64,000 bases of DNA, from NCBI GenBank assembly GCA_002440965.1, contig DJWJ01000033.1, positions 7,627-71,626 of the forward strand, in the 5' to 3' direction. The notes beneath the pieces are model-generated. The model was given only the letters and a program-made list of their open reading frames with translations. It was not told the DNA's origin and did no database searches. Below, one piece after another: positions 21,657 through 60,347 of the stretch. Source of the DNA: Candidatus Omnitrophica bacterium UBA6233 (GTDB lineage Bacteria; Omnitrophota; Gorgyraeia; Gygaellales; Profunditerraquicolaceae). A program made the position numbers and the translations under genes. Position 1 is the stretch's first letter, and each line of letters begins with the position of its first letter.

Positions 21657-21675
21657 ATTTAATTATACGGGTATA

Positions 21676-21810
21676 ATGACAAATGATAAAATTCAAAAAC
21701 CAAAATAAATCCAAAATTAAAATGTCAAATTTTAGAACAGAGGTTTGGCCATTTGGATTTTGTCATTTAGATTTATTTTGAATTTTGAGCTTTGTCATTT
21801 GACATTAAGC
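21676..21810. repeat. palindromic element, family 1 (same centre variant as 19877 copy, opposite orientation)
   Basis: The centre atgtcaaattttagaacagaggtttggccatttgg is the reverse complement of the centre of the 19877 copy. The arms are gacaaatgataaaattcaaaaaccaaaataaatccaaaa / ttttgtcatttagatttattttgaattttgagctttgtcatttgacatt. Confidence 0.85.
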
Positions 21811-23240: not shown

Positions 23241-23300
23241 TACATATACCCAGGATTGAATCTTGGAATTTTAAACATTCATTCGTCATTGAAACTTAGA
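23241..23300. repeat. partial family 2 element
   Basis: cccaggattgaatcttggaattttaaacattcattcgtcattgaaacttag shares the cattcgtcattg core with the 4921 and 32195 copies. Confidence 0.5.
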
Positions 23301-23318
23301 TACTGGTCATTATTAATA

Positions 23319-26602: not shown

Positions 26603-26745
26603 TAATGACAAATGACAAAATTCAAAGCTCAAAATAAGCCCAAAGCACTAATGATAAATACCAAAACAAAAGTTTTGTTATTTGAAATTTGACCTTTGAA
26701 CCTATCTTGGATTTTGAGTTTTGACATTTGTCATTAAACTATCTA
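26603..26745. repeat. palindromic element, family 1 (diverged)
   Basis: aatgacaaatgacaaaattcaaagctcaaaataagcc...ttggattttgagttttgacatttgtcatt. Confidence 0.75.
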
Positions 26746-28586
26746 TTTTTTAACAATCTTTTCAATTCCTTCTTAGCAGGCGCTCCTTTAGAAGAAAAAA
26801 TCTGCTGGTTATCTATAAGATATGTCGGTCCAAACATAATTTTGGACTCTTTGGCTAAACTGATATTATTTCTCAACAGAGCCAAACCTTCCTGGCCGCG
26901 GGCGCAGGATTTTATCTTATTTAAATCGATTTTGACAGCGCAATCATCCCACCAAGAGCTACCGATATTCTTAACCCTGCAGGTAATATAATCCCAGAAT
27001 CTATCCGGATAATATTTTTGAACGCAAACAGCGCGCAAATCCTCTTCTATCTCCGCGTCTCCATTCATAGTTTCAATCTTATTCCCATCCATAACGGCCA
27101 AGAAGTGCAGTGCCGGGTTGAATTCTCTAACCACATTCAAAACCTCAAGCGTATTTTTCCCGAAGAGACTTATGAATAAATCGAATTTCCCTTTAATGCC
27201 CTGACGGTTAACAAGATACCCTATTCCGGCAACTTCGGGTTTCAATAGATAAAAATTATCCCTCTCAATGAACTTAGTTTTCAATTTATCGAAATTTTCT
27301 TCTTTGAATATTTCTTTTCCTAAAAGAAATACCGGTAAGCCAATCGCTTTGGAATCCTCAAACAGTTTTGCAGCTTTTTTGTCCGGATAATATAAATATG
27401 AAGTCTCTAGGCCCGGAAATTGCTTTTTAAGAAAACTTATCGCTGGTTCAGGGTTGCAAACCAAACAGTCTTTAGTGGTAATAACCGTAAGATTGATTTT
27501 GGCCGCCTTACTGAATGAACACTCGGCATTATATAACCCGGGATTCCTGCAGATTCCGATAAAACCTTCTTTCTTGCATTCAGTAGCCGAAAAACAGCGC
27601 GGTAAGATAGAAAGAATAGAGGGTTCGTCGCCAATCTTATCCGAAAGCCTCAATTCTTCAACCTTGAATTTCTTTATCTTATCGCCTCTAATACCAAGCA
27701 CGGCTTTTCCGAGCCGGCGGCCCTGCCAATTCGCACGCAGGATAACAGTATCCCCCGCCTTGCCAAATGAATCACTAATAGTATTGCCTCGACCGTGTCC
27801 ATCAATAAGAACAGAAATTCCCGGCACACCCCCGATAATCTTTAAATCCTCCTGTTCACCCAGGTTGCTTAAAAGGATAATCAGTTTGACTTTCTGCTTT
27901 TTCAATTCCCGGACTGACGATTCTACGGCCTGCTTAGGATCAATAAGTTTTAAATCCGGGCTTCTGCGTTCAGCCGCTAAATTCGTCAATCCTATAATAC
28001 CAACCTTTATACCCGCCACATTCCTGACGACATAAGGTTTAACCGTGCCAAGGCTTAAATTCGAAGAGACGAAATCTAATTTTGTTTTATTGATGTTCTC
28101 GCTCAAGAAATCTTTACCGAAATTGAATTCATCATTGCTTATATTTACCGCATCGTATTTCATTGATTCCATAGCAGAAAGGCTTATCTTCGCCCGCTGC
28201 ATATCTAATTGTGTATTCTGCGTATTCTGGTCCAAAGGCCCTGCGCTAAAGAAATTCCCTGAATCCAAGACCAAAACATCAGGATATTCTTTTCTTAATT
28301 GTTTGATTAAAGTTGCCCGGCGGGCTACTCCGCCATCCGGTTCAACAGGACAATTACAATGGTAAAGCATAGCATGCGTTTCACCGGTATAGATCAAGAC
28401 CAACTCTTTATCTTTAGTGTAAACGGAGCTAATGATAAGCGCCAAAACACAAATAACAAATGAAATCCAAATGACAAAATTCAAATGAGAAAACTTTTTA
28501 TAGTTTTGACATTTTAGATTTGGATTCATTTTTCCTGCTTGTTCGGCAGAAGGAGAATTTGGGATTTGGAATTTGGGATTGTTCAT
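26739..28586 (-). CDS. metallophosphatase/5'-nucleotidase (UshA-like) fused to C-terminal tandem thioredoxin/DsbA-like domains
   Basis: 615 aa. The N-half has calcineurin-like and 5'-nucleotidase motifs (VLDSGN, ISNDEFNFG). The C-half has CLVCNPE (a CxxC) and a DsbA-like FGPTYLIDNQ. The first ~45 codons are encoded by repeat sequence, so the true start is uncertain. Confidence 0.6.
   Translation of the reverse strand: MNNPKFQIPNSPSAEQAGKMNPNLKCQNYKKFSHLNFVIWISFVICVLALIISSVYTKDKELVLIYTGETHAMLYHCNCPVEPDGGVARRATLIKQLRKEYPDVLVLDSGNFFSAGPLDQNTQNTQLDMQRAKISLSAMESMKYDAVNISNDEFNFGKDFLSENINKTKLDFVSSNLSLGTVKPYVVRNVAGIKVGIIGLTNLAAERRSPDLKLIDPKQAVESSVRELKKQKVKLIILLSNLGEQEDLKIIGGVPGISVLIDGHGRGNTISDSFGKAGDTVILRANWQGRRLGKAVLGIRGDKIKKFKVEELRLSDKIGDEPSILSILPRCFSATECKKEGFIGICRNPGLYNAECSFSKAAKINLTVITTKDCLVCNPEPAISFLKKQFPGLETSYLYYPDKKAAKLFEDSKAIGLPVFLLGKEIFKEENFDKLKTKFIERDNFYLLKPEVAGIGYLVNRQGIKGKFDLFISLFGKNTLEVLNVVREFNPALHFLAVMDGNKIETMNGDAEIEEDLRAVCVQKYYPDRFWDYITCRVKNIGSSWWDDCAVKIDLNKIKSCARGQEGLALLRNNISLAKESKIMFGPTYLIDNQQIFSSKGAPAKKELKRLLKNR
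28430..28580. repeat. palindromic element (family 1 arm plus family 2-like ggatttggaatttgggatt) overlapping predicted 5' end of the 5'-nucleotidase ORF
   Basis: caaatgaaatccaaatgacaaaattcaaatgagaaaac...ttttgacattttagatttggatt...gggatttggaatttgggatt. Confidence 0.7.
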
Positions 28587-31355: not shown

Positions 31356-31552
31356 AAAAGTCTGAATGCAAAAGTCAAAATCACAAGTCAAAAAGCAAAA
31401 CTGTTAATATCAAAGCTCGGAGACCAAAATTCAAAATAAATCTAAATGACAAAGACCCAATGCCAAAACCTTGGTTTTGATATTTGAGCTTGGGGATTTA
31501 TTTTGGATTTCGAATTTTGTCATTTGTCACTACACTTTTTTACTTTTGCTAT
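31356..31552. repeat. palindromic element, family 1 (full-length with outer caaaagtcaaaa module)
   Basis: aatgcaaaagtcaaaatcacaagtcaaaaagcaaaactg...caaagctcggagaccaaaattcaaaataaatctaaatgacaaagacccaatgccaaaaccttggttttgatatttgagcttggggatttattttggatttcgaattttgtcatttgtcac...ttttttacttttgc. Confidence 0.85.
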
Positions 31553-31555
31553 ATT

Positions 31556-32173
31556 TTATTTCTTTTTTTCCTGCGGTAAAATTACTTCATCAACCAAACC
31601 ATAGGCTTTGGCTTCATCAGCGGACATAAAATAATCCCTATCCGTATCTTTTTTCACTTTTTCAATCGACTGTCCCGTATGATGGGCAATTATCTCATTA
31701 ATCTTGTCCCGCATTCTTAAAATTTCCTGGGCATGGCGCGAAATATCTTCTGCTTGTCCTTGCACGCCTCCCCATGGCTGATGAATCATAATCCTTGAAT
31801 TAGGAAGGGCCTGACGTTTTCCTTTTGTTCCAGCGAGTAAAAGCAAAGCCCCCATACTGGAAGCCTGCCCCACGCAATAAGTAGCTATATCACATTTGAC
31901 AAATTGCATAGTATCATAAATGGCCAACCCGGCAGTAACTGAACCCCCCGGAGAATTTATATAAACGTTTATATCTTTGTTCACATCTTCCATCTGCAAA
32001 AACAGTATCTGGGCAATGATTAAATTAGCCACATAATCATCAATAGGAGTCCCGATAAAAAGAATACGATCCTTAAGCAGTCTAGAGTAAATATCATAAG
32101 CCCGTTCATAGCCTCTGGCGGTCTGTTCGATTACCATCGGCACTAAAGTCTGATTTTTAATCTCCATACCCAC
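31556..32173 (-). CDS. clpP: ATP-dependent Clp protease proteolytic subunit
   Basis: 205 aa. The ClpP catalytic triad context is present ([17 protein letters not shown]). Confidence 0.9.
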
Positions 32174-32194: not shown

Positions 32195-32300
32195 CTAAAA
32201 AGTCCAAGCTTCAATGACGATTCAAATCCCAAGCTCCAATTTTATATATTGAATCATTGGGATTTTATTCGACATTGGGATTTGGTGATTGGACATTAGT
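32195..32300. repeat. palindromic element, family 2 (cccaat / caatgacgaatg type)
   Basis: aagtccaagcttcaatgacgattcaaatcccaagctccaatttta/tatattgaatcattgggattttattcgacattgggatttggtgattggacatt. Related copies are at 4921-5040 and 23241-23300. Confidence 0.7.
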
Positions 32301-39002: not shown

Positions 39003-39197
39003 ACTCAAAAGTTAAAACGCAAAAAACAAAACTGGCAATGTCAAATGACAAAGCTCAAAATTCAAAATAAATTTAAATGACAAAATCCAAATAGCCAAAC
39101 TTCTGTTTTGATATTTGACATTTGACCTTTGGATTTATTTTGGACTTTGTATTTTGTCATTTGTCATTTAAATTTCGACTTTACTTAATATTCATAA
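39003..39197. repeat. palindromic element, family 1 (full-length)
   Basis: aaactcaaaagttaaaacgcaaaaaacaaaactg...caatgtcaaatgacaaagctcaaaattcaaaataaatttaaatgacaaaatccaaatagccaaacttctgttttgatatttgacatttgacctttggatttattttggactttgtattttgtcatttgtcatt. Confidence 0.85.
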
Positions 39198-39205
39198 CAG
39201 AATAC

Positions 39206-40135
39206 TCAAAGTTTCTCAATAATTGCCTGCGCTAAAAACGGCAGCATTATTTCGTGGTGGCCGATTATATAATAGCCCTTGCCGCCGGAAAGCACCGGCC
39301 GAGCTACTACATTTTGCGCGGCGCGGTATTGATAAATCATATCAAAAGTAGCTGTGGAAAAATCTTTAACCCTGTTCCTCAGATTACGGGCCAAATTTAG
39401 GGCCTTTAAGAAAACTTCCGGGAGCATAACCGCTGAACCAAAATTTAAAACAACACCTCCGTTATTCAAAGAGCGGATATTCTCGGTCAAAGCGTAAAAA
39501 TCCTCCTGGCTTCCTTTACCGGTTAATCCGGCGTCAAACGAAGGATGCTGGTGGATTATATCGGTTCCTATCCCGACAAAAACACACACCGGGACTTTGT
39601 ATTTATAGGCATTATATAAAAGGCTTAAGTTCTTATTGCGCAGTCCTGATTCGGCTATTTTCTTGGCGACGGAATACCCCAAACCTAACCCGCTCTCCAC
39701 ACCTTCAGCCACAGCAGTATTGATAAATTCTGCAGTCTCTCTACTCATCCCGAATTTACCGGTTTTAAGATTCTGGGTGACATCTTCCGAAGTCTTTCCC
39801 TGATAAGCAATCTCAAAATCGTGGATGATGCCAGCGCCATTCAGGCAAATACAGGTAATAACCTTGTTCTTAATCAACTCGATTAATATGGGGTTAAGTC
39901 CGCATTTTATGACGTGAGCGCCAGCCATAAATATGACTGCTTTTCCCTTTTTCCGCGCGCTTACAATGTCATTGACGATACAACGTAAATCCTTAGCCTT
40001 TAAAATATTCGGCAAAGAATCATAAAAGGCTTTAAAAGCCTTATTTTTAGCCGGAATCCGGGCAAAATCCGCGGAATTCACCTTGCTAAAACGCAACTTA
40101 ACCGAGTATGTCTTAACCTTGTGTATGTTTATCAT
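39206..40135 (-). CDS. deoxyhypusine synthase-like family protein
   Basis: 309 aa. The segment AVIFMAGAHVIKCGLNPILIELIKNKVITCICLNGAGIIHDFE parallels the DHS core (IFLGYTSNLISSGIRE..L...VDVLVTTAGGVEEDL). Confidence 0.45.
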   Translation of the reverse strand: MINIHKVKTYSVKLRFSKVNSADFARIPAKNKAFKAFYDSLPNILKAKDLRCIVNDIVSARKKGKAVIFMAGAHVIKCGLNPILIELIKNKVITCICLNGAGIIHDFEIAYQGKTSEDVTQNLKTGKFGMSRETAEFINTAVAEGVESGLGLGYSVAKKIAESGLRNKNLSLLYNAYKYKVPVCVFVGIGTDIIHQHPSFDAGLTGKGSQEDFYALTENIRSLNNGGVVLNFGSAVMLPEVFLKALNLARNLRNRVKDFSTATFDMIYQYRAAQNVVARPVLSGGKGYYIIGHHEIMLPFLAQAIIEKL

Positions 40136-40195
40136 AATGAAGTAATAATTTTAGCATAATCCAGCGCTAAATCAACTAGATATTTATACTATTAT

Positions 40196-40660
40196 TGCCC
40201 TTAAGCAGAGCGTCAGGCTCGCTCTCATCAGCGGGTCCTGCCGCGGAAGTATCCCCATTCCTGCGGGCGGCCGTGCCGTCCTCGGAACGGGGAAGCCCCT
40301 CTTCCGCGTCACCTGCGCACAGCTCTTTCCGCTCGCTAGCTCTAGAGTAGACCCACTGTCCCGATTGAATTGGAAACAGGGAGTACTGCTCGCCACCCGC
40401 TAACGGACATATTAACTACAAATATGTTTATAAATGACACTGACAAGTTGAGCCGCGAATTAGAGCTTTTGTGGTTTTGGCGGAGCGCGCATTAGAAAAT
40501 TTTCGGCAAGTGAGTGCGAGGAATTACGGCGAACGGAGGACCTTCTCGAAAGCGTAAGTCTGTCCGGGAGTGAGCCGTAAACCGAAGCACTCGGCGAAAA
40601 TTTTCAGCGCGCGGAGACAAAACCGCAAAAGCTGCCTCACACGATGAGACTTAACAGTGG
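40196..40660. ncRNA. candidate structured non-coding RNA / regulatory leader (GC-rich island with long-range helices); identity and strand unresolved
   Basis: The local GC content is far above the window background. No credible ORF covers it; the 40184-40396 ORF translates to R/S/P-rich nonsense. A 170-nt domain at 40464-40633 closes with about 27 bp of near-perfect pairing, with interior helices GAAAAUUUUC..GAGUGC/GCACUC..GAAAAUUUUC and UUACGGC/GCCGUAA. The 5' half has hairpins at 40207-40225 and 40289-40299, and a CCGCGGAAG/CUUCCGCG stem at 40241-40249/40301-40308. Confidence 0.35.
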
Positions 40661-40671
40661 CATTTAAATTA

Positions 40672-42690
40672 TTAAACCTTGAGAATTGAATCCGCGGCAG
40701 AGATTACGTCCTCGACGCTTATTGCCTTTAGACAGGCGAATCCTTTCTGGCAATTGTGCGCCAAACATTCAATACAGGCAGCTTTATGCAGAATCCTGTC
40801 GCGCGCGCCCACCGGCCCCCATCTTTTCGGGCTTAACCCCGCCTGATTCCTTGCGAATATCGAAATGACCGGCGTACCCACGGCGCAAGCAATATGCACC
40901 GGGCCGGAATCGTTGGAAATAAAAAGCTGACATCTTTTTAATATGCCGGCTAACTGTGTTATGGAGGTTTTCCCGGCTAAATTTATGGCAGCAGAATGCA
41001 TATGTTTAATCAGGTTATCCGCAAGTTTATAGTCTTTTGCGCTGGATATGACTAAAATCTTGAAACCGTATTTTTGCGCTAACCTATCGGCTGCCTGAGC
41101 AAAGCGTTCAACCGGCCAAATCTTCGACGGACAACTGGCTGCCGGGTTAAGAGCCAATAACCTATCCGTTTCATTTACAGCCTCCTGTTTAAAGAATCCC
41201 TGAACCCACTTTTCAGAATCAATTCTTACCGGCATAAATAAACTTCTATCTTTTGCTTCAATCCCCAGATACCTCAACAAATCCAGGTTATATTCCGATT
41301 CATGTTTTTCGCCGAGTTGCTTGGTATGTTTGATTGCATCCGTAAGCAAAAATCCGAGCTTGCGGTCATAACCGATTCTTCTGGGTATACCGCTAAGAAA
41401 AGTTAACAAATGCACCCGGCTAGCCGGATGCAAAATCAGCGCCAAATCGAATTTCTCTTTTTTAAGTTCCCGGACCAATTTAACCGAACGAAACCAACCT
41501 TTATGTTTTCCTTCTTTGTCCAAAACAATCACTTTATCCAAATACGGATTGCCCGCGACTATGTCTTTAGCATACGGAGAAACCATCATCGCTATATAAC
41601 TCTGGGGAAATCTGTCTCTTAAAGCTTTGATCACCGGCGTAGACAAGAGCACATCGCCGATTCTATCCGTGCGCGCAATGAGTATACGCTTAAAATTATC
41701 CCGGCTCCTGGCTCTTGGCTCCTGGCTCTTGGAAGTAAAAATTTCCTTTACCGCCCTGAAAACATCCTCTGTTTTTACTAAAAATATACATTCTAAAGTC
41801 CCGAACCGGCATTGCGCTTTTTGGCATGGACGGCAAGAGATTTCTTTTTTAACTACAAAAGAATGCTCTGACCACGGGCCGTATTTAGCATCACTGGTTA
41901 TCCCGAATACCGCCACCACCGAAACATTTAAATAGCTTGCCAGATGCAAAGCCGCGCTATCATTCGTAACCAAAAGCCCGGCCCTCTTTATAAGATAACC
42001 TAATTCGCTTAATGAAGTCTTGGCGCCTAAATTCAAGGCCCCGGTATTTTGGGCTATATATTCATTGGTTGGCTCATCGTTTTTATCTCCGACTAAAACG
42101 ATTTTTACCGGTAACTCTTTGGACAATCTCTTGATTAATTCGACAAATCGCTCCTTTGGCCAACGCTTGGTGTGACTGCGGGCTCCTGCGGAAATTACGA
42201 TAAATTTATCACTCTGGCCTATCCCGCCTTCTTTTAATAAACTGTCCACCTTCTCCCGGCTAGCCCCGCTGAAATGAAGCGACTTACCGGCTTCTGCCGC
42301 ATGCAGACCTTTAAGGATTCTCCCGATTTTATAAAGATGCCTGTCTTTAGCATGTTTTACATCTTTGGGTATGCGCGTATAAAAAGAGGTTTTATATCTG
42401 GCCGCAAGAAGTACTCCGAAAAAACTATTTCGCAGGTCAACCACCGCCTCAAACCTCTCCTTCCATAAAAAAATCAGCAATTTTATGTTTTCTCTGAGGC
42501 TTGAGCGTTTTTCATATACGATCAAACGCTGGATATCGGGATTCCCTTCAAAAATGCCCCTTGCCCGGGCTCCGCAGATCACGGTAACTTTTGCTTCAGG
42601 AAACTTTTTCCGAAGACTATCCAATACCGGCAAGGTAAGGATTACGTCGCCGATATTACTTAGAGTAATGAAGAGGATTTTATTAACCAT
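40672..42690 (-). CDS. tandem double glycosyltransferase family 9 (heptosyltransferase-like) fusion protein
   Basis: Two complete GT9 modules, each with N-terminal ILxxxxxxIGDVLLSTP-type and C-terminal ND(S/T)GPxHxAxAxGTP motifs. The track ORF starts at 42777, but the first 29 codons are repeat-encoded, so I place the start at MVNKILFITLSNIGDV (42690). Confidence 0.7.
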   Translation of the reverse strand: MVNKILFITLSNIGDVILTLPVLDSLRKKFPEAKVTVICGARARGIFEGNPDIQRLIVYEKRSSLRENIKLLIFLWKERFEAVVDLRNSFFGVLLAARYKTSFYTRIPKDVKHAKDRHLYKIGRILKGLHAAEAGKSLHFSGASREKVDSLLKEGGIGQSDKFIVISAGARSHTKRWPKERFVELIKRLSKELPVKIVLVGDKNDEPTNEYIAQNTGALNLGAKTSLSELGYLIKRAGLLVTNDSAALHLASYLNVSVVAVFGITSDAKYGPWSEHSFVVKKEISCRPCQKAQCRFGTLECIFLVKTEDVFRAVKEIFTSKSQEPRARSRDNFKRILIARTDRIGDVLLSTPVIKALRDRFPQSYIAMMVSPYAKDIVAGNPYLDKVIVLDKEGKHKGWFRSVKLVRELKKEKFDLALILHPASRVHLLTFLSGIPRRIGYDRKLGFLLTDAIKHTKQLGEKHESEYNLDLLRYLGIEAKDRSLFMPVRIDSEKWVQGFFKQEAVNETDRLLALNPAASCPSKIWPVERFAQAADRLAQKYGFKILVISSAKDYKLADNLIKHMHSAAINLAGKTSITQLAGILKRCQLFISNDSGPVHIACAVGTPVISIFARNQAGLSPKRWGPVGARDRILHKAACIECLAHNCQKGFACLKAISVEDVISAADSILKV

Positions 42691-42699
42691 AATTAATTT

Positions 42700-42850
42700 T
42701 GATCGCGGCTGTTTTAATGTCAAAGCCCAAAAATTCAAAATGACAAATACCCAATGACAAAACCTTGGTTTTGACATTTGTAATTTTGATTTTGAATTTA
42801 TTTTGGGCTTTGAATTTTGTCATTTGTCATTACACTTTTTACTTCTTCTA
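42700..42850. repeat. palindromic element, family 1 (between the two GT9 genes; supplies stop of upstream gene and spurious 5' extension of downstream gene)
   Basis: ttttaatgtcaaagcccaaaaattcaaaatgacaaatacccaatgacaaaaccttggttttgacatttgtaattttgattttgaatttattttgggctttgaattttgtcatttgtcattacactttttacttc. Confidence 0.85.
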
Positions 42851-43853
42851 TCACCTCATCCGGAGTAATGGCTTTCATGCAGCGGTTATCGTGACAACTG
42901 GTTTCGTAACAGGGGATTTTACAGCCCACGTTTTTTTGCAGGATAATTACATTTTTTAGCGGATACGGCCCGGTAATCGCGGGAGAGGTAGGGCCAAAAA
43001 GAGCGATTATCTTCTTTGCTCCTACGCTATTGGCGATATGCAGCGGCCCGGTATCGGCGGTAATAAATAAACTCGCCCTTCTTGCCAACGCGCCGAATTG
43101 CTTTATATTAAATACGCCGCAGGCCACTAGGGGTTTATGTATCATTTTATCCCGGATATAAGTAACTAATGACAAGTCATTAACCGCTCCGGTGAGGATA
43201 ATTTTAGCCCCAAATTTTTCGACTAATTTATCCGCTAAAACCGGCCAATAATCTTTAGGCCAGCGTTTAGGCGACCAATTTCCTCCGGGATTGCATACCA
43301 CAATAAAATCATTATCCTTGACCGAATTTTTCCTAAAGAAATCTTCCATGAAAGCATTATCTTCAACGCTTATAAAAAAATCTGTATACCGGTCTTCTAT
43401 CCTCAGCCCTGATTTTTCGATGACATCAAGATAATAATCTATGCGGTGCAAAGAATCTCTTTGGGGAGGAATAATTTTCTTTGTAAGCAGAAAGGCCCTT
43501 TTTTTAGTGAGATGTCCTATCCTTTCGGGTATACCTGCCAGACGGCAAATCAGGGCCCGGCTAAATGACTTGTGCAGGAGAAAAACTGCGTCGAACTTCT
43601 TGAGCCGAAGAACACGTATGAAACTTAACAAAGAAAACACGCCCTTATGCCTGTCTTTCTCGTCAAAGATGATTATCTCATCCAGATACGGATTGCCTTT
43701 CAAAACAGGATAACACCTCGGAGGAATAATACAGGCCAAGTAACTCTCCGGATAGTTATGCCGGATATTCCTGATTACTGCGGTAGAAAATAGCACATCC
43801 CCTAACCAATTGACATTAAAGACCAATATCTTTTTGTAACTTTTGGCATTCAT
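42798..43853 (-). CDS. glycosyltransferase family 9 (ADP-heptose:LPS heptosyltransferase, WaaC/WaaF-like)
   Basis: 351 aa GT9 with NWLGDVLFSTAVI and TADTGPLHIANSVGAKKIIALFGPTSP. The C-terminal ~14 codons and the stop lie within a repeat copy. Confidence 0.75.
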   Translation of the reverse strand: MNAKSYKKILVFNVNWLGDVLFSTAVIRNIRHNYPESYLACIIPPRCYPVLKGNPYLDEIIIFDEKDRHKGVFSLLSFIRVLRLKKFDAVFLLHKSFSRALICRLAGIPERIGHLTKKRAFLLTKKIIPPQRDSLHRIDYYLDVIEKSGLRIEDRYTDFFISVEDNAFMEDFFRKNSVKDNDFIVVCNPGGNWSPKRWPKDYWPVLADKLVEKFGAKIILTGAVNDLSLVTYIRDKMIHKPLVACGVFNIKQFGALARRASLFITADTGPLHIANSVGAKKIIALFGPTSPAITGPYPLKNVIILQKNVGCKIPCYETSCHDNRCMKAITPDEVIEEVKSVMTNDKIQSPK

Positions 43854-45723: not shown

Positions 45724-45737
45724 ATATTCTTAAATTA

Positions 45738-45920
45738 CAAAGGTCAAAGCTCAAAATTCAAAATAAATCTAAATGACAAATACCAAATGAAAAAACCTTA
45801 GTTTTGATATTTGTGTTTTTAGTTTTGGATTTATTTTGTGCTTTGAATTTTGTCATTTGTCATTAAACTTTCTACTTTTAAATTGTGGTTTTGACTTCTG
45901 ATTTGTTACTTTCTACTTCG
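45738..45920. repeat. palindromic element, family 1 (full-length with tail module)
   Basis: aaaggtcaaagctcaaaattcaaaataaatctaaatgacaaataccaaatgaaaaaaccttagttttgatatttgtgtttttagttttggatttattttgtgctttgaattttgtcatttgtcatt, plus aaattgtggttttgacttctg. Confidence 0.85.
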
Positions 45921-45925
45921 GCTAT

Positions 45926-48046
45926 TTACTTGAGTAATTTCTCTATTGCTTCCAGCACTTCCTCAACCGTAATCAAATTCATGCACTTTTTATGCCTGCA
46001 TTTTGGTTTATAGCAGGGGCTGCAGGGCAATTCCCTTCTGATGATTACACGCTCTCTTGCCGGAGGCATATGCCTTGCCGGATCAGTCGGGCCAAAAAAA
46101 GCGATTACCGGGATATTCACCGCGCAAGCTACATGTAAAGGCGAAGAATCCGCTGAAATATACAGAGAACAGCGTTTAATAAGCGCGGCTAACTGGTTAA
46201 TGCTGGTCTTGGCGCAGGCATTAATGATCTTGGTGCTCTTTACCATCGAGGCTAACATATTAGCTTGAGCCACGTCCTCCTGTGTTCCGGTAACAACCAC
46301 GCGTATATTCTTGAGGCCGAGTTCATCGCATAATTTAGCCAAGCGTTCTTTAGGCCAACACTTGGTTAACCACCGTTTACTAGCGCTGATATTTATCCCG
46401 ATAATTTTCTGGTCGGCGCTTAACCATTCCTTATTCAGGAAATTCTCAATATACTCTTGGTCTTCTTTGCTCGGCCATAATTCCAAACGGTTATCCCGCA
46501 AATCTATCCCCAGCATCTTCAATACGCGGAACTGATGCGTAACCGGGTCCATAGCCGGTTTTTCATCTTTGATCCGGTGGTTAAGCAGAAAACCAAACCT
46601 CTTGTTATCATAACCAAAACGATCAGGGGCCAAAGAAAGGAAAGAAAGCAAATGGCTGGCTTTGTTATTCTGCAGGTCAATGACCAAATCAAAATTCTTT
46701 TTTCTTAACGAGCGGGCAATATTCAAAAATCCCTTAACTCCTTTATCCTTATTTTTAAGGTCGACCACCAGTAGTTCGTCTATATAAGGGCTTCTAAGCA
46801 AAACCTCTTTGGATTCTTCTCCGACCATAAAACTGATTTTATGCTGGGGGAATTTCTCCCTTATCGCCCGCAAACCCGGCGTAGACAGAATCACGTCTCC
46901 CAGAGAACTCAACTTGATAATTAAAAGCTTAAAGCTGGTTAACGCGTCCTTATAAACATCAAGCGTATTGTTCACCATCAACTCGACGCTATATTTCTCT
47001 TTCACCTTCTGGTAGGCTGCTTCGGCAAAATTACGCGCTAATTCCGGATCCTTGTATATTTTAATCACCGCTTCGGCTATGCTTTGAGGATCGCTTGGCG
47101 CTACCATCAATCCTGTGCGGCCATTCTCAATAATATCAACTACGCCTCCCACTTTGGTCGCTACAACCGGCACACCGGATGCCTGCGCTTCCACAATCAC
47201 CCTGCCAAAGGCTTCATGCGTCGTCGTAGCCAAAACCACCAGATCCAAATTGGACAAGACTTCCGGGATATTCCTTTGCGTGCCTAAAAATTCCGTGCAA
47301 TGGTCAAGCCCTAACCTTCTGGTCAAAACCTGTATCTGTTCTTTATAAGCTTGCCGCGAACTCGGAGCATCCCCGACTATCCAGATTTTTAAATTCGGCA
47401 CAACCCGGGCTACCTTAGCCATAGCCTTGATAAAAAAGAGATGCCCCTTTAACGGAGTAATCCTGCCGATAATGCCGACGTTAAAATCCTTGCCGCGTTT
47501 CTTATCCGGACTCAAGTATTTAAATTTCTCCAAATCTACGCTGCGGGGAACCAGCTTAATCCGGTCATGCGGAACTTGAAAATCTTCGATCATGTGCCGG
47601 GCAATTATGTTACTTAAAACTATCACCCGCTTGGCCCATCCCATCACATAACTAAAAGGATGCTTTTTGTAATAACCATGGCAAGTAGTAACAAAGACGG
47701 TTTTTGTCGAACGAGCCGCAAAATAAGCAATCCAAGCCGGAACTCGCGAACGGGCATGCACAATATCGATTTCTTCTTTTTTGATAATCTCAATCAACCG
47801 GGGAATAGTTCTAATTATACTGATGAAGGATTTTCTATGCACCGGGAGCTGGTAATGAATCCCCCCCAGCGCCTCTAGATCCTTAACCAGCGAGCCGCCG
47901 GCAGAAACCACCACTGCTTTATGGCCCAGGCGCACCAAATACTTAGATAAATCCAGGGTTCCGGTTTCAACCCCGCCGACATTCAGTTCAGGTAATATTT
48001 GTAGAATATTCATAATTTTCAATTCGAAGTTAATGTCAAAGGCCAA
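45926..48046 (-). CDS. GT4 glycosyltransferase fused to C-terminal GT9 heptosyltransferase-like domain
   Basis: 706 aa. Residues ~1-365 are GT4 (EAQASGVPVVATKVGG). Residues ~370-706 are GT9 (LIIKLSSLGDVILSTP...SADSSPLHVACAVNIPVIAFFGPTDP). Confidence 0.7.
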   Translation of the reverse strand: MAFDINFELKIMNILQILPELNVGGVETGTLDLSKYLVRLGHKAVVVSAGGSLVKDLEALGGIHYQLPVHRKSFISIIRTIPRLIEIIKKEEIDIVHARSRVPAWIAYFAARSTKTVFVTTCHGYYKKHPFSYVMGWAKRVIVLSNIIARHMIEDFQVPHDRIKLVPRSVDLEKFKYLSPDKKRGKDFNVGIIGRITPLKGHLFFIKAMAKVARVVPNLKIWIVGDAPSSRQAYKEQIQVLTRRLGLDHCTEFLGTQRNIPEVLSNLDLVVLATTTHEAFGRVIVEAQASGVPVVATKVGGVVDIIENGRTGLMVAPSDPQSIAEAVIKIYKDPELARNFAEAAYQKVKEKYSVELMVNNTLDVYKDALTSFKLLIIKLSSLGDVILSTPGLRAIREKFPQHKISFMVGEESKEVLLRSPYIDELLVVDLKNKDKGVKGFLNIARSLRKKNFDLVIDLQNNKASHLLSFLSLAPDRFGYDNKRFGFLLNHRIKDEKPAMDPVTHQFRVLKMLGIDLRDNRLELWPSKEDQEYIENFLNKEWLSADQKIIGINISASKRWLTKCWPKERLAKLCDELGLKNIRVVVTGTQEDVAQANMLASMVKSTKIINACAKTSINQLAALIKRCSLYISADSSPLHVACAVNIPVIAFFGPTDPARHMPPARERVIIRRELPCSPCYKPKCRHKKCMNLITVEEVLEAIEKLLK

Positions 48047-48150
48047 AGCTCAAAATCCAAAATAAATCCAAAACTCAAATACCAAAACGAGGATTTTGTC
48101 ATTTGGTATTTGTAATTTGTGCTTATTTTGAATTTTGTCATTTTTCATTA
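48030..48150. repeat. palindromic element, family 1 (diverged, short)
   Basis: ttaatgtcaaaggccaaagctcaaaatccaaaataaatccaaaactcaaataccaaaacgaggattttgtcatttggtatttgtaatttgtgcttattttgaattttgtcatttttcatt. Confidence 0.75.
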
Positions 48151-48161
48151 CGCTTCTTAAT

Positions 48162-50111
48162 TTATAATATCTTCTCCACCGCTTCTCTTACCAACTCATT
48201 ATCTTCTAAAGGGATTACCGGATCCCTGCTATTCCAGGCATCTTCCAATTTCCGGCCTAAATTATCAACCTTGCTTAAAATTATATGTTTATTCCCGGAT
48301 AAATCTTTTAAAAAGGCCTTATGTTTACGGCTTAAGCCGCCTGCCTCAAAAACCAGAACCGGCTTGGCGCTATTAGCTGCCTCGGAAAGCATAGAAATAC
48401 TTTCCGGAGAACTGACAATTACCTTACTTAAGCCTAAAATTCCTCCCACTGCTTCCGGGATATTCTTTTCATTGGCAATAACCATAAGTTTTGTGCGCGG
48501 ATAACTTTGAAGCTCTTGCTTTAGCAAAGCTTCTGCTTCTTCCGGAGTCCGGCGCGAAGTTGTAATTAAAATATACGCTCTTAATTTTTCTGAGGCGGAC
48601 TTGAGTTGATTGATAAGTTCCAGCACCGTATCCCTACGGAGCTTGAATCCTTTGCTGTCACCCCCGATTAACACACCAATATATAAATCCGAAGACGACA
48701 CTCCAAGAATAGAAGACCGGACCAATTTATCGCTTTGCTCTTTGAGATACTTCTCGTTTATCAAATTCAAAGCTCCCGCAGTAACAACTACATTCTTTTT
48801 TCTGGGAGGCTTATCATGCCGCGGCATAATCACCAAATCAAATTTATTTAAACTTAAGATCGACGGCCGCATAATTACTATAGATTTACTTAAGGCTTCA
48901 CGCGAAACTACAAAGTTAACCGCAGCCAGCTTTGAACCGCAGGATATAACTATATCCGGCCGAACGTGCGAAATTATCCTATAGGTATCCTCGCTAAGAG
49001 ACCGTTTTAAACCCGCTAAATTCCCCTGAGAGCCGTATTTCCCTGAAAGCAAATTATCTAGGGTTAAACCGAACTTGCCCAAATTATCCTTAAATTTTAC
49101 CTCCGCAACACTTACCTTGACCTCAATCCCTTTCTTTTCCAAATATTCTCTAATTACGTTGCTGACAGCCTCTGATTGACGAAGATGCCCGGCTTTTGTA
49201 TCGCTTAAAATAAGGATATTTCTCTGATCCGAATATTTCCAGATTTTATAGGTCCAAAGATATTCTTTAGGATAACTACGGATTAAGGCTTCGAAAATCC
49301 CGGTAACTTTCTTCAGATTTTCCTTTAAGTCCGCCTCAATATCCTGTGTTTTGTTTAATTTTATTTCGTCCCCCACCAAAACCTTAACTTTATGGTCGGA
49401 TGTGCGCCTAAAATATACCGGAATAATGGGGGCGTCATATTTATAGGCCAGTTTTATTCCGCCGGTAGACATTGAAGCGGTCTTGCCAAAAAAACCAACC
49501 AGCTCTCCAGTCTTACCCCCTTGATCCAAAGTTATGCCAATAGCGTAATTACTTTTAAACGCTTCGATCAATTGTTTAAGCCCGCCTTCTTTGGTAATTA
49601 TCTTGCAGCCTTTCTGGCGGCGGTATTTATTCAACAATCCGTTCAAGCGGGGAAAATCCTGGTCTTTGACAAAAAGGCAAAATGGAAAACCAAGGTTGGC
49701 GCAAATGATATTAGCCAATTCCCAGCTTCCGGCATGCACCGCGATAAGGATAACGCCTTTCCCTTTTTTTAACCCGGAGTAAATATTATCCAGACCTTCC
49801 ACAATGACGTATTTATCCATATAGGCCTTATCCACTTTGGGAATAAGAAAAATCTCGATAAGGCTTTCGCCGAAAGAACGGTAAAAGTCATGCGTGATTC
49901 TGGAAATTTCTTTAGGAGCTAAATTTTCTCCCAAAGCAAACTTTAGGTTTGCATAACACCTTGCTTTATGTTTAAGGTCAAAATAATAAAAAATGTCTCC
50001 GAGCAAGCGGCCAAAACAAAGGCTCCACTCCACAGGAATAAACCTGAAGATAGCCCCCAAGGACCTAAAAAGTATACAAGCTAAGTAATCTAGCAAAAAA
50101 AGGTTCTTCAT
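48162..50111 (-). CDS. lipid A late acyltransferase (LpxL/HtrB-like LPLAT) fused to ELM1/DUF1022-like domain
   Basis: 649 aa. The N-terminal ~300 aa is a lauroyl/myristoyl acyltransferase family with the HAGSWE motif. The C-terminal ~340 aa starts ILILSDTKAGHLRQSEAV, which resembles the ELM1-family N-terminus. Confidence 0.6.
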   Translation of the reverse strand: MKNLFLLDYLACILFRSLGAIFRFIPVEWSLCFGRLLGDIFYYFDLKHKARCYANLKFALGENLAPKEISRITHDFYRSFGESLIEIFLIPKVDKAYMDKYVIVEGLDNIYSGLKKGKGVILIAVHAGSWELANIICANLGFPFCLFVKDQDFPRLNGLLNKYRRQKGCKIITKEGGLKQLIEAFKSNYAIGITLDQGGKTGELVGFFGKTASMSTGGIKLAYKYDAPIIPVYFRRTSDHKVKVLVGDEIKLNKTQDIEADLKENLKKVTGIFEALIRSYPKEYLWTYKIWKYSDQRNILILSDTKAGHLRQSEAVSNVIREYLEKKGIEVKVSVAEVKFKDNLGKFGLTLDNLLSGKYGSQGNLAGLKRSLSEDTYRIISHVRPDIVISCGSKLAAVNFVVSREALSKSIVIMRPSILSLNKFDLVIMPRHDKPPRKKNVVVTAGALNLINEKYLKEQSDKLVRSSILGVSSSDLYIGVLIGGDSKGFKLRRDTVLELINQLKSASEKLRAYILITTSRRTPEEAEALLKQELQSYPRTKLMVIANEKNIPEAVGGILGLSKVIVSSPESISMLSEAANSAKPVLVFEAGGLSRKHKAFLKDLSGNKHIILSKVDNLGRKLEDAWNSRDPVIPLEDNELVREAVEKIL

Positions 50112-54749: not shown

Positions 54750-54950
54750 AGCGCAAAAGCCAAAACCACAACTAAAAATTAAAACTGTTTATTCAGATTA
54801 ATGACAAATGTCAAAGCACAAAATTCAAAATAAATTTAAATGACAAATACCTAATGACAAAACATGGGTTTTGATATTTGGATTTTGAGTTTTGGATTTA
54901 TTTTGGGCTTTGAATTTTGTCATTTGACATTAGGCTTTTTACTTTTGCCT
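54740..54950. repeat. palindromic element, family 1 (full-length with outer module caaaagccaaaaccacaa)
   Basis: aaagcgcaaaagccaaaaccacaactaaaaattaaaactg...aatgacaaatgtcaaagcacaaaattcaaaataaatttaaatgacaaatacctaatgacaaaacatgggttttgatatttggattttgagttttggatttattttgggctttgaattttgtcatttgacatt...ctttttacttttgcc. Confidence 0.85.
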
Positions 54951-54956
54951 TTTTAT

Positions 54957-56939
54957 TTATGCCTGTGTTTTCTCCTCGGGTAACGTTCTTGAGGTAAATG
55001 TGCATTTGGGAAAATTCGAACAGCCATAAAAGAAACCGCGCGAAGAACGCCGCTCAATAAGTTCTCCGCCGCAACCCTCTTGGGGGCATTTAACGCCGGT
55101 GGTAATCGACTTGGAATTCTTACACTCCGGAAAGGCCGAACAACTTAAGAACTTTCCCTTTCTGCCCCATTTAACAATCATCGGCTTGCCGCATTTGTCG
55201 CAGATTTGATCCGTAGTAATAACTTCTTTCTTGATATTAGCCTGGGCAAAATCAACGCTGACTTTAAATGGCGCGTAGAAATCCTGCAAGACCTTAATCC
55301 GGGTTAACGCGCCTTCCTCGATTTGATCCAATTCTTCTTCCATTCCGGCGGTAAAATTTACATCGATAATCTTGGGAAAATATTCAACCAGTAAATCACA
55401 AACTTTAAAGCCTAATTCCGTCGGGTTAAGATATCCCTTGATCCTGCGCACATAATCGCGCAATATCAAAGTATAGATTATCGGGGCATATGTGGATGGA
55501 CGGCCAATCCCGTCTTCTTCCAACGCCCTGATCAGAGAACTATCCGAGAAGCGAGCCGACGGCTTGGTAAAATGCTGCGAAGGCGAAAGTTTCAACAATT
55601 CCAGAATATCGCCTTTCTCCAAAACCGGGATTACATTCTTTTTGGGCTTATCATTATTAGTTTCATCCTCTTCCTCGGTTTTATTATAGACTGCCATAAA
55701 ACCGCTAAAAGCCAACACGCTGCCTGAAGCATTGAATTTATATTGGCCGGCCTCTATGACAACTGAAGTTACGGAATAAACCGCAGGAGTCATTTGGCTG
55801 GCTACAAAACGGTTATAAATAAGCTCATATAATTTTTGCTGGTCAGGGGTTAAGAAGTTCTTTAGACTTTCGGGGTGACGCGAAATAAATGTCGGGCGGA
55901 TTGCTTCATGCGCTTCCTGAGCGAGCTTCTTAACCTTATAAGAATTTGGTTTCTCCGGCAGATATTCCTTGCCAAAATTTCTGGCGATATATTCCCGCAC
56001 TTCCTTGATTGCTTCGGGAGCTGCCCTCGGAGAATCCGTGCGCATATAAGTAATCAATCCAACCGGATTATCCGCGCCTAAATCAATACCTTCATAAAGT
56101 TGTTGAGCCACCAACATTGTTTTGTTGGCGTTAAACCTTAGCTTGTTGAACGCTTCCTGCTGCATTGTGCTGGTAATAAAAGGAGCGTCGGCGAAACGCC
56201 TCTTTTCGCTTTTCTTGACCTCGGCGACCACAAACTGCTTTTGTCTTATATCATCGCACAATTTATCCGCTTCTTCTTTTTTCTTGATCTCTATTTTCTC
56301 GCCATTTATCTTTTCCAATTTAGCCAGGAATTTATCATTCCCCTTGGCTAGATCCGCTTCGATCTCCCAATACTCCTGAGAAACAAATTTCTGAATTTCT
56401 CTTTCCCTTTCAATAATCAGCCTTAAAGCCACTGATTGAACGCGTCCCGCGCTTAAACCCCGGGCAATCTTTTTCCAAAGTAGCGGGCTTAAGAAATAAC
56501 CCATAATCCTATCCAACACCCTGCGCCCTACTTGAGCTTCAATCATCTTGGCGTCGAATTCACGCGGATGCTTAAAAGCCTCATTAACGGCGGCAGGCGT
56601 AATCTCATGAAAAGTAACCCTCAAGATTTTCGCTTTCTTAAGTATCCGCTCTTTAATCTGCCAGCCGATTGCTTCGCCTTCCCGGTCAGGGTCGGTAGCG
56701 ACATAAACAACCTCTTTGTTCTTGGCTTCTTTCTTGAGCTCGCTTAGAATCTTTTGCCTTCCGGCGATCGTGACATATTCCGGTTCAAAATCCTTATCGA
56801 TTTCCACCCCGAGTTTTTTCTGCGGCAGGTCAACGATATGGCCCATGGAAGATACTACGCTAAAGGCATCGCCTAAAATCCTGCCGATGGTCTTGGCTTT
56901 GGTCGGCGATTCCACAATAACTAAGCTTTTTTTCTTCAT
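54957..56939 (-). CDS. topA: type I DNA topoisomerase
   Basis: 660 aa. A Toprim N-terminus (LVIVESPTKAKTI), the catalytic Tyr region, and C-terminal C4 zinc-ribbon repeats. Confidence 0.9.
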   Translation of the reverse strand: MKKKSLVIVESPTKAKTIGRILGDAFSVVSSMGHIVDLPQKKLGVEIDKDFEPEYVTIAGRQKILSELKKEAKNKEVVYVATDPDREGEAIGWQIKERILKKAKILRVTFHEITPAAVNEAFKHPREFDAKMIEAQVGRRVLDRIMGYFLSPLLWKKIARGLSAGRVQSVALRLIIEREREIQKFVSQEYWEIEADLAKGNDKFLAKLEKINGEKIEIKKKEEADKLCDDIRQKQFVVAEVKKSEKRRFADAPFITSTMQQEAFNKLRFNANKTMLVAQQLYEGIDLGADNPVGLITYMRTDSPRAAPEAIKEVREYIARNFGKEYLPEKPNSYKVKKLAQEAHEAIRPTFISRHPESLKNFLTPDQQKLYELIYNRFVASQMTPAVYSVTSVVIEAGQYKFNASGSVLAFSGFMAVYNKTEEEDETNNDKPKKNVIPVLEKGDILELLKLSPSQHFTKPSARFSDSSLIRALEEDGIGRPSTYAPIIYTLILRDYVRRIKGYLNPTELGFKVCDLLVEYFPKIIDVNFTAGMEEELDQIEEGALTRIKVLQDFYAPFKVSVDFAQANIKKEVITTDQICDKCGKPMIVKWGRKGKFLSCSAFPECKNSKSITTGVKCPQEGCGGELIERRSSRGFFYGCSNFPKCTFTSRTLPEEKTQA

Positions 56940-60162: not shown

Positions 60163-60347
60163 TTGACTCAAAAGTTAAAATGTAAAACCAAAAACTGTTA
60201 AGGTCAAAGGTCAAAGCTCAAAATTCAAAATAAGCACAAATGACAAATAGCAAATGACAAAACTCCAGTTTTGATATTTGACATTTGAGTTTTAGATTTA
60301 TTTTGAGCTTTGAATTTTGTCATTTGTCATTAAGCTTTTGACTTTAT
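60163..60347. repeat. palindromic element, family 1 (full-length)
   Basis: gactcaaaagttaaaatgtaaaaccaaaaactg...aaggtcaaaggtcaaagctcaaaattcaaaataagcacaaatgacaaatagcaaatgacaaaactccagttttgatatttgacatttgagttttagatttattttgagctttgaattttgtcatttgtcatt...gcttttgactttat. Confidence 0.85.

Follow-up and report, generated by a model that had tools for sequence, protein, structure and literature searches.

What occupies the long gap at positions 40136-40671, between a deoxyhypusine-synthase-like (DHS-like) gene and a fused heptosyltransferase gene? The Omnitrophota, a phylum whose cells are very small, are uncultivated, and almost nothing is on record about their non-coding repertoire. A search of the literature on the phylum for non-coding RNA, structured RNA or repeats found nothing relevant. 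Within the window (the whole 64-kb stretch of DNA that was analysed), the sequence-only reading had singled out this gap as a strikingly GC-rich island and a candidate large structured RNA, and comparative analysis now bears this out in part. What lies in the gap is a doublet made of two interspersed intergenic elements, called here A and B, which form hairpins and are widespread in Omnitrophota. The features on which the argument rests are the following.

2411-2535, plus strand: second copy of element B, decayed and internally deleted, directly past the queA stop codon
2538-3530, minus strand: queA
39206-40135, minus strand: DHS-like gene, 309 aa, downstream flank (Pfam DS, 29.5 bits, cut-off 27)
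40175-40148, minus strand: sigma-70-like promoter site of the DHS-like gene, TTGATT-16-TG-TAAAAT, from a promoter scan
40207-40225: small hairpin AGAGCG-7-CGCTCT, with the A-like module on one side and the DHS-like promoter region on the other, not conserved in relatives
40229-40404, plus strand: GC-rich A-like module, with the terminal arms only of family A and an interior unique to the lineage
40230-40240 and 40386-40404: A-type arms, AGCGGGTCCTG and CTGCTCG-CCACCCGCTAAC
40405-40430: AT-rich spacer between the two modules (GC 0.23), with the palindrome ACATATT-7-AATATGT (40407-40427)
40431-40666, plus strand: element B, a full hairpin rod of 236 nt (inverted repeats I1-I4; fold z = -7.3)
40431-40448 and 40649-40666: outer arms of B, which pair together (repeat I3)
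40462-40637, plus strand: conserved core of B, matched by covariance model R1
40489-40508, 40514-40536 and 40574-40605: B core motifs GCATTAGAAAATTTTCGGCA, GTGCGAGGAATTACGGCGAACGG and GCCGTAAACCGAAGCACTCGGCGAAAATTTTC
40672-42777, minus strand: fused double family-9 glycosyltransferase (heptosyltransferase), 701 aa, upstream flank

In stretches of 200 nt, the GC peak of the window lies at 40206-40405 (0.635, against 0.425 overall), which confirms the composition first noticed. The GC skew of the window suggests that genes run with replication. Compared with dinucleotide shuffles, the whole gap folds with z = -5.8 on the plus strand and -4.8 on the minus strand, the hairpin at 40425-40671 with -7.3, and the GC-rich half by itself with -2.1. 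All of the helices that had been drawn by eye are real: the small hairpin at 40207-40225, the stem CCGCGGAAG (40241-40249) / CTTCCGCG (40301-40308) and the GGGGaagCCCC hairpin GGGGAAGCCCC (40289-40299), both within the A-like module, the 27-nt arms 40464-40490 / 40607-40633 (81% complementary), GAAAATTTTC at 40495-40504 and 40596-40605, and the TTACGGC / GCCGTAA stem. The long domain placed at 40464-40633 extends further still, as its outer arms pair too; these correspond to the AAATGAATCTG... / ...CAGATTCATTT arms of other copies.

Known families do not account for the island. Neither on its two strands nor across the whole window is there an Rfam 15 covariance-model match at gathering score, and 39900-40900 yields only two chance-level matches (E 1.6 and 8.4), outside the island or at its edge. 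A and B copies at ten other loci gave zero Rfam matches, and ARAGORN reports neither tRNA nor tmRNA in the island. The earlier failure to recognise a known RNA is thus borne out, and the known Rfam classes (6S, SRP, RNase P, tmRNA, riboswitches, OLE/ROOL/GOLLD/HEARO) drop out as candidates. The island is unmatched in plasmid and phage sequences, a motif scan of viral contigs returned 0 matches, and a scan of the island's plus strand detected neither promoter nor terminator. ORFs of 70 and 51 aa can be drawn within it. A search of 5.8 billion proteins brought up no homologue of the first (40184-40396), which also lacks a Pfam match; it had been dismissed as nonsense, and a coding sequence or pseudogene was rejected.

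The 3' half of the island carries the clearest signal. Element B, at 40431-40666, is an intact, canonical member of a new Omnitrophota hairpin family. Covariance model R1 scores 164 bits at 40462-40637, with the window copy in its seed; independent support for membership comes from 90.5% identity with one other copy (L075) and 67-75% identity with seven other genome loci. All of the family motifs, aGAAAnUUUUyGGCA...GCrAGGnnUUACG...GUAArCCGwAGCnnnCGGCrrAAA, are present within the same coordinates. With R1, at least 112 full-length copies, all distinct in sequence, are found in Omnitrophota genomes and metagenomes, most of them collected with a pattern drawn from B's 3' motif, so that the invariance of this motif and the apparent uniformity of the family are inflated. 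One motif scan led to at least 120 metagenome stretches.

These copies share a covarying rod structure with near-invariant internal loops. Among seven genome homologues, 13 of the 40 pairs show compensatory changes, with about nine G.U and zero A.C on the plus orientation. When 104 copies are compared, compensatory changes reach 27 of 40 pairs, and 95.3% of cells pair (78.0% in shuffles). Covariation scores 0.435 in the real alignment and 0.123 in shuffled ones, none of 500 shuffles reaching the observed value, and slid controls stay at or below 0.081. Around 45 loop and stem positions are near-invariant, among them purine-rich internal loops with tandem G.A; no conserved internal loop exceeds about 6 x 6 nt, and the one of this size encloses two G-C pairs. 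The pairs also reveal which strand matters. In B, G.U outnumbers A.C by 52 to 17, and on the element's own strand G.A/A.G pairs outnumber C.U/U.C by 121 to 7. This bias is independent of the direction of neighbouring genes, the G.U:A.C ratio being 33:16 in copies antisense to their neighbours and 31:8 in sense copies. Both families are constrained on one strand, here the plus strand of the window, which is antisense to all of the flanking genes. Of the two options left by the sequence-only reading, the signal therefore falls on the plus-strand one, that of an independent RNA. Its candidate large structured RNA survives in part: the 3' domain is conserved and covarying, but the island is not one 0.5-kb unit, being made of two separate modules.

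The GC-rich 5' half is harder to place. It occupies the usual position of family A, directly 5' of B and on the same strand. Family A is a second new family of about 160 nt with 31 nhmmer matches, compensatory changes at 22 of 27 pairs and a covariation score of 0.502 against 0.149. A lies upstream of B on the same strand in 25 of the 26 loci that hold both, and within 400 nt of it in 21; across 30 loci, no conserved promoter is found upstream of A. The assignment of the window's GC-rich half to family A is made by position and arms only, and it fails the covariance model. Blastn, nhmmer and an iterated family-A profile found no homologue of it across 190 related loci; the mutually exclusive, riboswitch-like pairing suggested for this half would thus be peculiar to the lineage. 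The nhmmer family-A profile gives no match even with --max. With default filters, the family-A model R2 finds nothing in the window; with filters off, just the arms align, at 9.5 bits (40229-40324) and 6.1 bits (40377-40408). Aligned to family A, the GC-rich half has short motifs alone in common, and the interior helices of the family (the GUUUUGCC...GGCAAAAC hairpin and the GAACCnUGCCCGCUCG motif) have no R2 or profile match in it. The arm pattern TTAGCGGGTCCTG... / ...CTGCTCG..CCACCCGCTAA is present in the window, with the second arm 27 nt before the outer arm of B. Two ways in which the modules might pair were rejected. A kissing interaction between CCUCGC of A and GCGAGG of B fails because B reads GCAAGG in most copies and the CUCGC facing it does not change. 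Pairing of A arms with B arms fails for the window because each set is self-complementary and the two are not mutually complementary.

The doublet fills the space between the heptosyltransferase stop codon, which is 5 nt from the outer arm of B, and the DHS-like gene's own promoter-like site, which lies between the island and the start codon. The heptosyltransferase matches Pfam Glyco_transf_9 in two stretches (229.5 bits). In the closest relatives, the only conserved part of the gap is the last ~50 nt before the DHS-like start codon, promoter-like site included, and several to many of the relatives that keep this gene have gaps of just 48-100 nt.

Elsewhere, A and B elements are dispersed among housekeeping genes in either orientation. 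All B copies but one are intergenic; most abut a gene end, and about two thirds run antisense to the genes on both sides. Among 869 clustered ORFs, no neighbour recurs except the heptosyltransferase and DHS-like genes, no transposase, integrase or reverse transcriptase recurs beside the elements, and just 4 of 112 B copies adjoin a tRNA. The 64-kb window itself contains two B copies of different subtypes, and overall density is low, at roughly one copy per 100-300 kb. The gap had been described as the only long one free of the window's AT-rich repeat; in fact, the region before 2538 holds the second hairpin copy. This copy keeps the 5' outer arm and outer helices and has lost a core of about 105 nt between two GAAAATTTT(C) repeats. 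Its positions 2412-2441 are 83% identical to 40431-40460 (repeat D13), it aligns on both sides with a full-length copy at the syntenic site in L119, which comes from the same sample, and R1 with filters off gives it only 7.6 bits.

Turnover is visible at other loci too. Two close relatives (L005, L006) retain only a remnant arm. A related 344-kb contig carries, at a different locus, a copy with 90.5% identity to the B of the window; the positional orthologue on that contig reaches less than 72%, and the DHS-like gene 81.5%. Between copies that share a contig, identity is 58-83%, and every such copy has a closer match on some other contig, so nothing points to recent bursts. In four loci (L146, L140, L129, L168) an ORF sits between A and B, on the opposite strand. 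Two loci (L093, L103) have B-/B+ pairs around ORFs, and in another (L191) A+ and A- flank a gene. The elements are old residents of intergenic sites that have been lost, internally deleted, inverted and exchanged between loci, and inverted pairs of them sometimes bracket unrelated genes. Searching for target-site duplications from minimum-free-energy folds proved too noisy; an arm-anchored comparison revealed none at the six copies with clearly defined arms on both sides. Comparison of filled and empty sites gave no clean boundary. A tblastn search of 1.2 Mb of fragments with an approximate IS200 TnpA query gave no match, and one genome (L086) showed no genome-specific repeats with B's arm motif.

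The reading that we prefer, with a probability of about one half, is that of a dispersed, two-family structured repeat, in which the A and B units are non-autonomous, mobile-element-like modules of DNA. Their working form would be the folded single strand, and a conserved factor, with its gene at some other place in the genome, may read the B rod; a transcript of the plus strand would be slightly favoured over single-stranded DNA. Mobility sits uneasily with the lack of any transposase, integrase or reverse transcriptase recurring near the elements, with the missing target-site duplications and the empty search with the approximate TnpA query, and with the divergence of same-contig copies. We see only a slim chance for a bolder version: A and B as two undescribed functional classes of nucleic acid forming a bipartite unit, whose inverted arms surround a slot (empty here) and which, read as RNA or single-stranded DNA by a conserved factor, captures single accessory genes or moves them between housekeeping loci, as a new kind of cassette mobility unrelated to integrons or known IS families. 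Alternatively, the B rod could be a new protein-binding or catalytic RNA.

This last thought leads to the strongest competitor, a family of cellular non-coding RNA genes, which we regard as possible though rather unlikely. On this view, a single plus-strand transcript of about 440 nt would contain A and B as domains, or the two would be small RNAs lying side by side. They would serve the host, for instance by catalysis or by binding a conserved protein, and their scatter would come from gene duplication instead of mobility. Such a role would suit sequence and structure kept across the phylum, near-invariant purine-rich loops with tandem G.A, a strand bias that ignores neighbouring genes, and the A-before-B order on one strand. 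The paralogues are also old, by their greater similarity to copies on other contigs, and conservation is higher in B than in the coding gene beside it (90.5% against 81.5%). However, no promoter or terminator was detected in the island, none is conserved upstream of A, and most copies run antisense to both neighbours. Whole genes on the opposite strand separate A from B in four loci, genes also lie between inverted pairs (B/B or A/A), close relatives have freely lost copies or deleted their interiors, and in the window the position of A is held by a non-member.

It is doubtful that the elements are purely single-stranded DNA hairpins mobilised in trans by a hairpin-specific HUH (Y1) transposase, as a giant analogue of REP/REPIN sequences or of IS200/IS605-derived palindrome-associated elements (PATEs), A forming the left end and B the right. 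IS200/IS605 transposition leaves no target-site duplication, in keeping with the absence seen here, and the hairpin is conserved on one strand, where G.T mismatches would be tolerated. The fixed polarity of A and B with occasional cargo between, the inverted pairs and the exchange of copies between loci agree as well. But a search of 1.2 Mb, made with a weak query, turned up no Y1 transposase, and the elements are 5-10 times longer than REPs, low in copy number (about one per 100-300 kb) and without near-identical copies in a genome. REPs are species-specific, whereas the core here is conserved phylum-wide. Lastly, about two thirds of copies place the favoured strand opposite the gene-sense strand, which is not the orientation expected for lagging-strand-template elements if genes run with replication.

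A bulky, orientation-independent hairpin could also serve as a terminator or 3'-end stabiliser of the heptosyltransferase operon, insulating it from the DHS-like promoter, as the AT-rich palindromic repeat may do elsewhere in the window. In its favour, 5 nt separate the outer arm of B from the stop codon, and most copies adjoin the end of a gene. The folds of both strands are very stable, and almost every other inter-operon gap of the window carries a palindromic repeat. We nevertheless consider this very unlikely: a generic hairpin needs neither some 45 near-invariant positions, nor a strand-specific G.U/G.A bias, nor a fixed A-to-B order, the scan of the island showed no terminator-like site, and close relatives do with a gap of 48-100 nt. 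Least credible of all is a minus-strand 5' leader or riboswitch of the DHS-like gene, proposed at first as a 0.5-kb structured leader, or a decayed protein-coding remnant: the island does lie upstream of that gene and reading frames can be drawn in it, but the promoter-like site is downstream of the island, which is thus not the gene's leader, the closest relatives keep gene and promoter without the island, the element adjoins many other genes at unrelated loci in both orientations, with two thirds of copies antisense and the structural signal on the other strand, and the ORF has no homologue or Pfam domain.

Whichever reading prevails, the gain is two covariation-supported structured families with alignments and covariance models, of more than 100 and about 30 copies and without an Rfam 15 match. 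If they are RNAs, they make two sizeable classes of unknown function, and their fixed A-then-B layout invites biochemistry. If they are mobile modules, these are unusually long, conserved and strand-specific, and they mark the entry sites of accessory genes into conserved operon arrays. In either case, the models let annotators drop spurious ORF calls in GC-rich gaps, and they explain some assembly breaks in Omnitrophota genomes recovered from metagenomes.

Several known systems resemble parts of this picture. The REP, BIME and REPIN sequences of proteobacteria are likewise intergenic palindromes whose single strands fold. They lie close to gene ends, facing either way, and frequently pair up as inverted doublets of set relative polarity; they are vertically persistent and encode no gene. 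However, REPs measure 20-40 nt and REPINs about 100 nt, and they come in hundreds of almost identical copies that are specific to a species and linked to a RAYT gene, whereas A and B are 160-240 nt long, low-copy, divergent within a genome and complex in their interiors, with a phylum-wide core. No RAYT was found in the 1.2 Mb of fragments with the approximate query, and in size and copy number A and B do not match REP. The bcr1-type repeats of Bacillus cereus are comparable to ERIC-like repeats. With ERIC, RU, other MITEs and bcr1, our elements share the form of imperfect intergenic palindromes of 100-250 nt with internal deletion or insertion variants, as well as folding of the transcript and, for some, compensatory changes. 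The ERIC/RU-type and other bacterial MITEs are reviewed in PMC3184786. By definition, a MITE has terminal inverted repeats, target-site duplications and a parent IS. The window's B has such repeats (40431-40448 / 40649-40666), trivially so for any long hairpin, but among the copies and neighbours examined neither target-site duplications nor near-identical copies with a related or parent IS were found. Neither ERIC nor bcr1 has a two-family A-then-B layout or brackets diverse genes.

Shared with PATEs and TnpB's omega RNA are two different structured ends on one strand, optional cargo, no target duplication, and a long conserved structured right end that could double as RNA. Yet no tnpA or tnpB lies near any of the ~112 copies, the related Rfam families are unmatched, and B is a simple rod whose loops are conserved and not variable. 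Among protein-binding RNAs, 6S RNA and other rod-shaped molecules are also stacks of helices and internal loops of about 180-240 nt, with structure conserved above stem sequence. 6S RNA has a large central bubble that mimics an open promoter, and one or two copies per genome; B lacks such a bubble and an Rfam 6S match, is multi-copy and dispersed, and showed no promoter or terminator in the window copy. Finally, integron attC sites are also imperfect palindromes of which one folded strand is the active form, and the genes beside them are likewise small and of unknown function. They measure 57-141 nt, vary in sequence, carry R''/R' boxes (RYYYAAC / GTTRRRY) and form arrays in the same orientation, whereas A and B have greater length and a conserved sequence, end in TTTAGCGGG / CCCGCTAAA or AAATGAATC / GATTCATTT, and are scattered among housekeeping genes.

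The GC-rich island in the gap at 40136-40671 is real. Every sequence feature quoted in the sequence-only reading lies where that reading had placed it, and the 200 nt at 40206-40405 do have the highest GC content of the window (0.635 vs. 0.425 overall). The island is made up of two structured repeats, one from each of two paired families dispersed throughout the Omnitrophota: element B (the 3' hairpin), which is intact, and an A-like, degenerate partner. The metagenome loci are assigned to Omnitrophota solely through the named genome loci, each either Omnitrophota or an automatically labelled relative. Two minus-strand genes, identified by ORF and Pfam, bound the gap:

Features of the gap, its flanks and the second B site
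2411-2535: second copy of B, different in subtype, directly behind the stop codon of queA, with a core of ~105 nt missing
39206-40135, minus strand: deoxyhypusine-synthase-like (DHS-like) gene
40175-40148, minus strand: sigma-70-like site (TTGATT, 16 nt, TG-TAAAAT)
40230-40240: A-like terminal arm, AGCGGGTCCTG
40386-40404: A-like terminal arm, CTGCTCG-CCACCCGCTAAC
40672-42777, minus strand: fused double family-9 glycosyltransferase (heptosyltransferase) gene

Against dinucleotide shuffles, the whole gap folds with a z-score of -5.8 on the plus strand and -4.8 on the minus strand, the hairpin at 40425-40671 with -7.3, and the GC-rich half by itself with -2.1. The long 3' hairpin first described is genuine and extends further than described, with arms 40431-40448 and 40649-40666 pairing too. 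Rfam 15 contains no family matching the island on either strand, the whole window, or the homologous elements of ten other loci. ARAGORN finds no tRNA and no tmRNA, and plasmid and phage collections hold nothing resembling the island. For its 70-aa ORF, already dismissed as nonsense, a comparison with 5.8 billion proteins gives no homologue, and Pfam gives no domain.

Seven other genome loci contain counterparts of the hairpin at 40431-40666, with 67-75% identity. Their position is either the same gap or 1-2 kb away, and with respect to the DHS-like gene both strands are represented. Their seven-sequence alignment contains compensatory changes in 13 of 40 pairs and, in the window's plus orientation, about nine G.U and no A.C. 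A degenerate 24-nt pattern drawn from B's 3' motif matches at least 120 metagenome stretches and no viral contigs. Among the matches listed, the covariance model of B (R1, with rough E-values and the window in its seed) recovers at least about 112 full-length copies, every sequence distinct, and ~15 more cut by contig ends. Since most copies were fished by the 3' motif, the invariance of that motif and the apparent limits of the family are biased by this retrieval. The candidate structure is borne out for this half by covariation in relatives: across 104 copies, compensatory changes occur in 27 of 40 pairs, standard pairs fill 95.3% of cells (78.0% in shuffles), and the covariation score is 0.435 vs. 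0.123 when shuffled, with none of 500 shuffles reaching 0.435 and sliding the partners giving no more than 0.081. The 3' half is thus a well-supported new structured element. The motifs aGAAAnUUUUyGGCA and GCrAGGnnUUACG, both outside the fishing pattern, are almost invariant. The apical region varies in length, optional additional hairpins occur in some copies, and the whole spans 159-248 nt.

B pairs include 52 G.U vs. 17 A.C. A count by gene context shows the bias both in copies antisense to their neighbors (33:16) and in sense copies (31:8), and mismatches are G.A/A.G in 121 cases vs. C.U/U.C in seven. The bias in both gene contexts and the G.A excess place the constraint on the element's own strand, rather than in transcription-linked mutational bias. 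In the window this is the plus strand.

Family A, a conserved element of ~160 nt with 31 profile matches, lies 5' of many B copies and shares their strand. Its structure is strongly supported by compensatory changes in 22 of 27 pairs and by a covariation score of 0.502 (0.149 shuffled). On that common strand, the pair table gives a count of ~19 G.U vs. ~6 A.C. A precedes B on one strand in 25 of the 26 loci with both, 21 of them at most 400 nt apart; the lone exception, L157 (1808-2259), has B on the minus strand and then A on the plus strand. In the window, the GC-rich half occupies A's usual place just upstream of B and retains the terminal arms of A. The family A model aligns to its arms alone (9.5 and 6.1 bits), and searches of related loci found no homologue of its interior. 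Because of this, the half is called A-like and not a family A member; it is probably a degenerate or replaced module. The single large RNA of ~0.5 kb first proposed is not supported; the unit consists of two modules.

Nor is the island a leader of the DHS-like gene. Among 68 related loci retrieved via the DHS-like protein, the closest relatives (80-93% protein identity) conserve only ~50 nt directly before the start codon, including the sole sigma-70-like site of the region, and in several relatives the heptosyltransferase gene lies merely 48-100 nt upstream. The DHS-like gene's own promoter thus lies between the island and the start codon, and the island is dispensable. Remnant arms after the stop codon (AAATTAATCTGGTG in L005, AAATGATACTGGCAG in L006) indicate that it is ancestral and was lost there rather than gained in the window. 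Besides this gene and the heptosyltransferase, B's neighbors are assorted housekeeping genes, with no recurrent transposase among them.

All but one of the 112 B copies are intergenic, and no target-site duplication is seen around the elements; those with co-directional neighbors are antisense in 46 cases and sense in 27, on heuristic gene calls (longest ORFs). Estimated from fragments, there is about one copy per 100-300 kb per genome. Within a contig, copies share 58-83% identity, and every one of them has a nearer counterpart on another contig, so these paralogues are old. With L075, at another locus of a related 344-kb contig, the window's B shares 90.5% identity, vs. <72% with L145, its positional orthologue on that contig; the DHS-like genes of L145 and the window are 81.5% identical. 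B subtypes therefore move from one locus to another or undergo conversion between them. The core missing at 2411-2535 had lain between two GAAAATTTT(C) repeats, each its own reverse complement and hence both direct and inverted, and the syntenic site of L119, from the same sample, holds a full-length B. Further internally deleted copies of ~80 nt, also coreless, are seen at L012 (2645-2728) and L146 (14-87), with R1 scores of 33-39 bits. The coreless copies suggest recurrent deletion between two GAAAATTTTC repeats.

Both B copies of the window's genome start with TAAATGACACTG and share AAATGACA with its abundant AT-rich repeat; in other genomes the corresponding position carries AAATGAAT or AAATGAAC. 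This high-copy palindromic intergenic repeat (~180 nt; arms TAATGTCAAATGACAAAATTCAAAA... / ...TTTTGAATTTTGTCATTTGTCATTA) occupies most inter-operon gaps of the window. One copy folds with z = -4.2, and AAATGACA occurs 30 times in the window.

Copies of the AT-rich repeat
8376-8560, 12462-12622, 19877-20060, 21675-21858, 26604-26787, 31406-31589
39037-39220, 42729-42851, 45733-45920, 48031-48169, 54800-54983, 60200-60383

A third short repeat family, of 52 nt, lies at gene ends (4993-5044, 23255-23306, 32241-32292), its copies 63-79% identical (consensus ATTG.A.CTTGG.ATTT...CATTCGTCATTG..ACTT.GATA.TGG). The heptamer TTTTGAC forms a short tandem array at 109-140. The sole long plus-strand gene (61019-62899) encodes a DEAD-box helicase with a DSHCT (Ski2/Mtr4-type C-terminal) domain; the rest of the window is transcribed from the minus strand.

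The analysis shows two conserved structures under constraint on a single strand each, dispersed and in a fixed order. The conserved and asymmetric loops of B suggest that its folded single strand is recognized by a factor whose gene lies elsewhere. As to the working form, RNA is slightly favored, given the deep sequence conservation, purine-rich loops and tandem G.A, although a promoter/terminator scan of the island found neither, a conserved promoter is absent upstream of A, and about two thirds of copies run opposite to their operons. The main alternative is that single-stranded DNA is the working form, recognized by a transposase specific for hairpins. Simple termination fails to account for the conservation, which is both sequence- and strand-specific.

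The outer "shell" helices of A and B are of the same type and of inverse polarity, and one shell polarity around a central slot is common to three arrangements:

A+ then B+: 25 loci
B- then B+: L077, L088, L093, L103
A+ ... A-: L191

The slot usually measures 9-130 nt (26 nt in the window, 40405-40430), and holds a single gene in L146, L140, L129, L168, L093, L103 and L191. These genes are mutually unrelated and match no Pfam or PADLOC family, including the one inside the B-/B+ pair of L103. Directly after that pair, downstream of a heptosyltransferase gene, L103 carries a putative toxin-antitoxin pair (11973-12511; AbrB/SpoVT-like antitoxin and small toxin). The elements undergo loss, deletion and exchange, and in places inverted shells bracket genes; A/B units may be non-autonomous mobile or recombinogenic modules. 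In L191 (2210-3453; also in L192), an inverted family A pair (175-179 bits, arms 75-92% complementary) brackets a hypothetical gene of 243 aa, with folD and the gene for methylenetetrahydrofolate reductase on either side of the insertion, a transposon-like layout.
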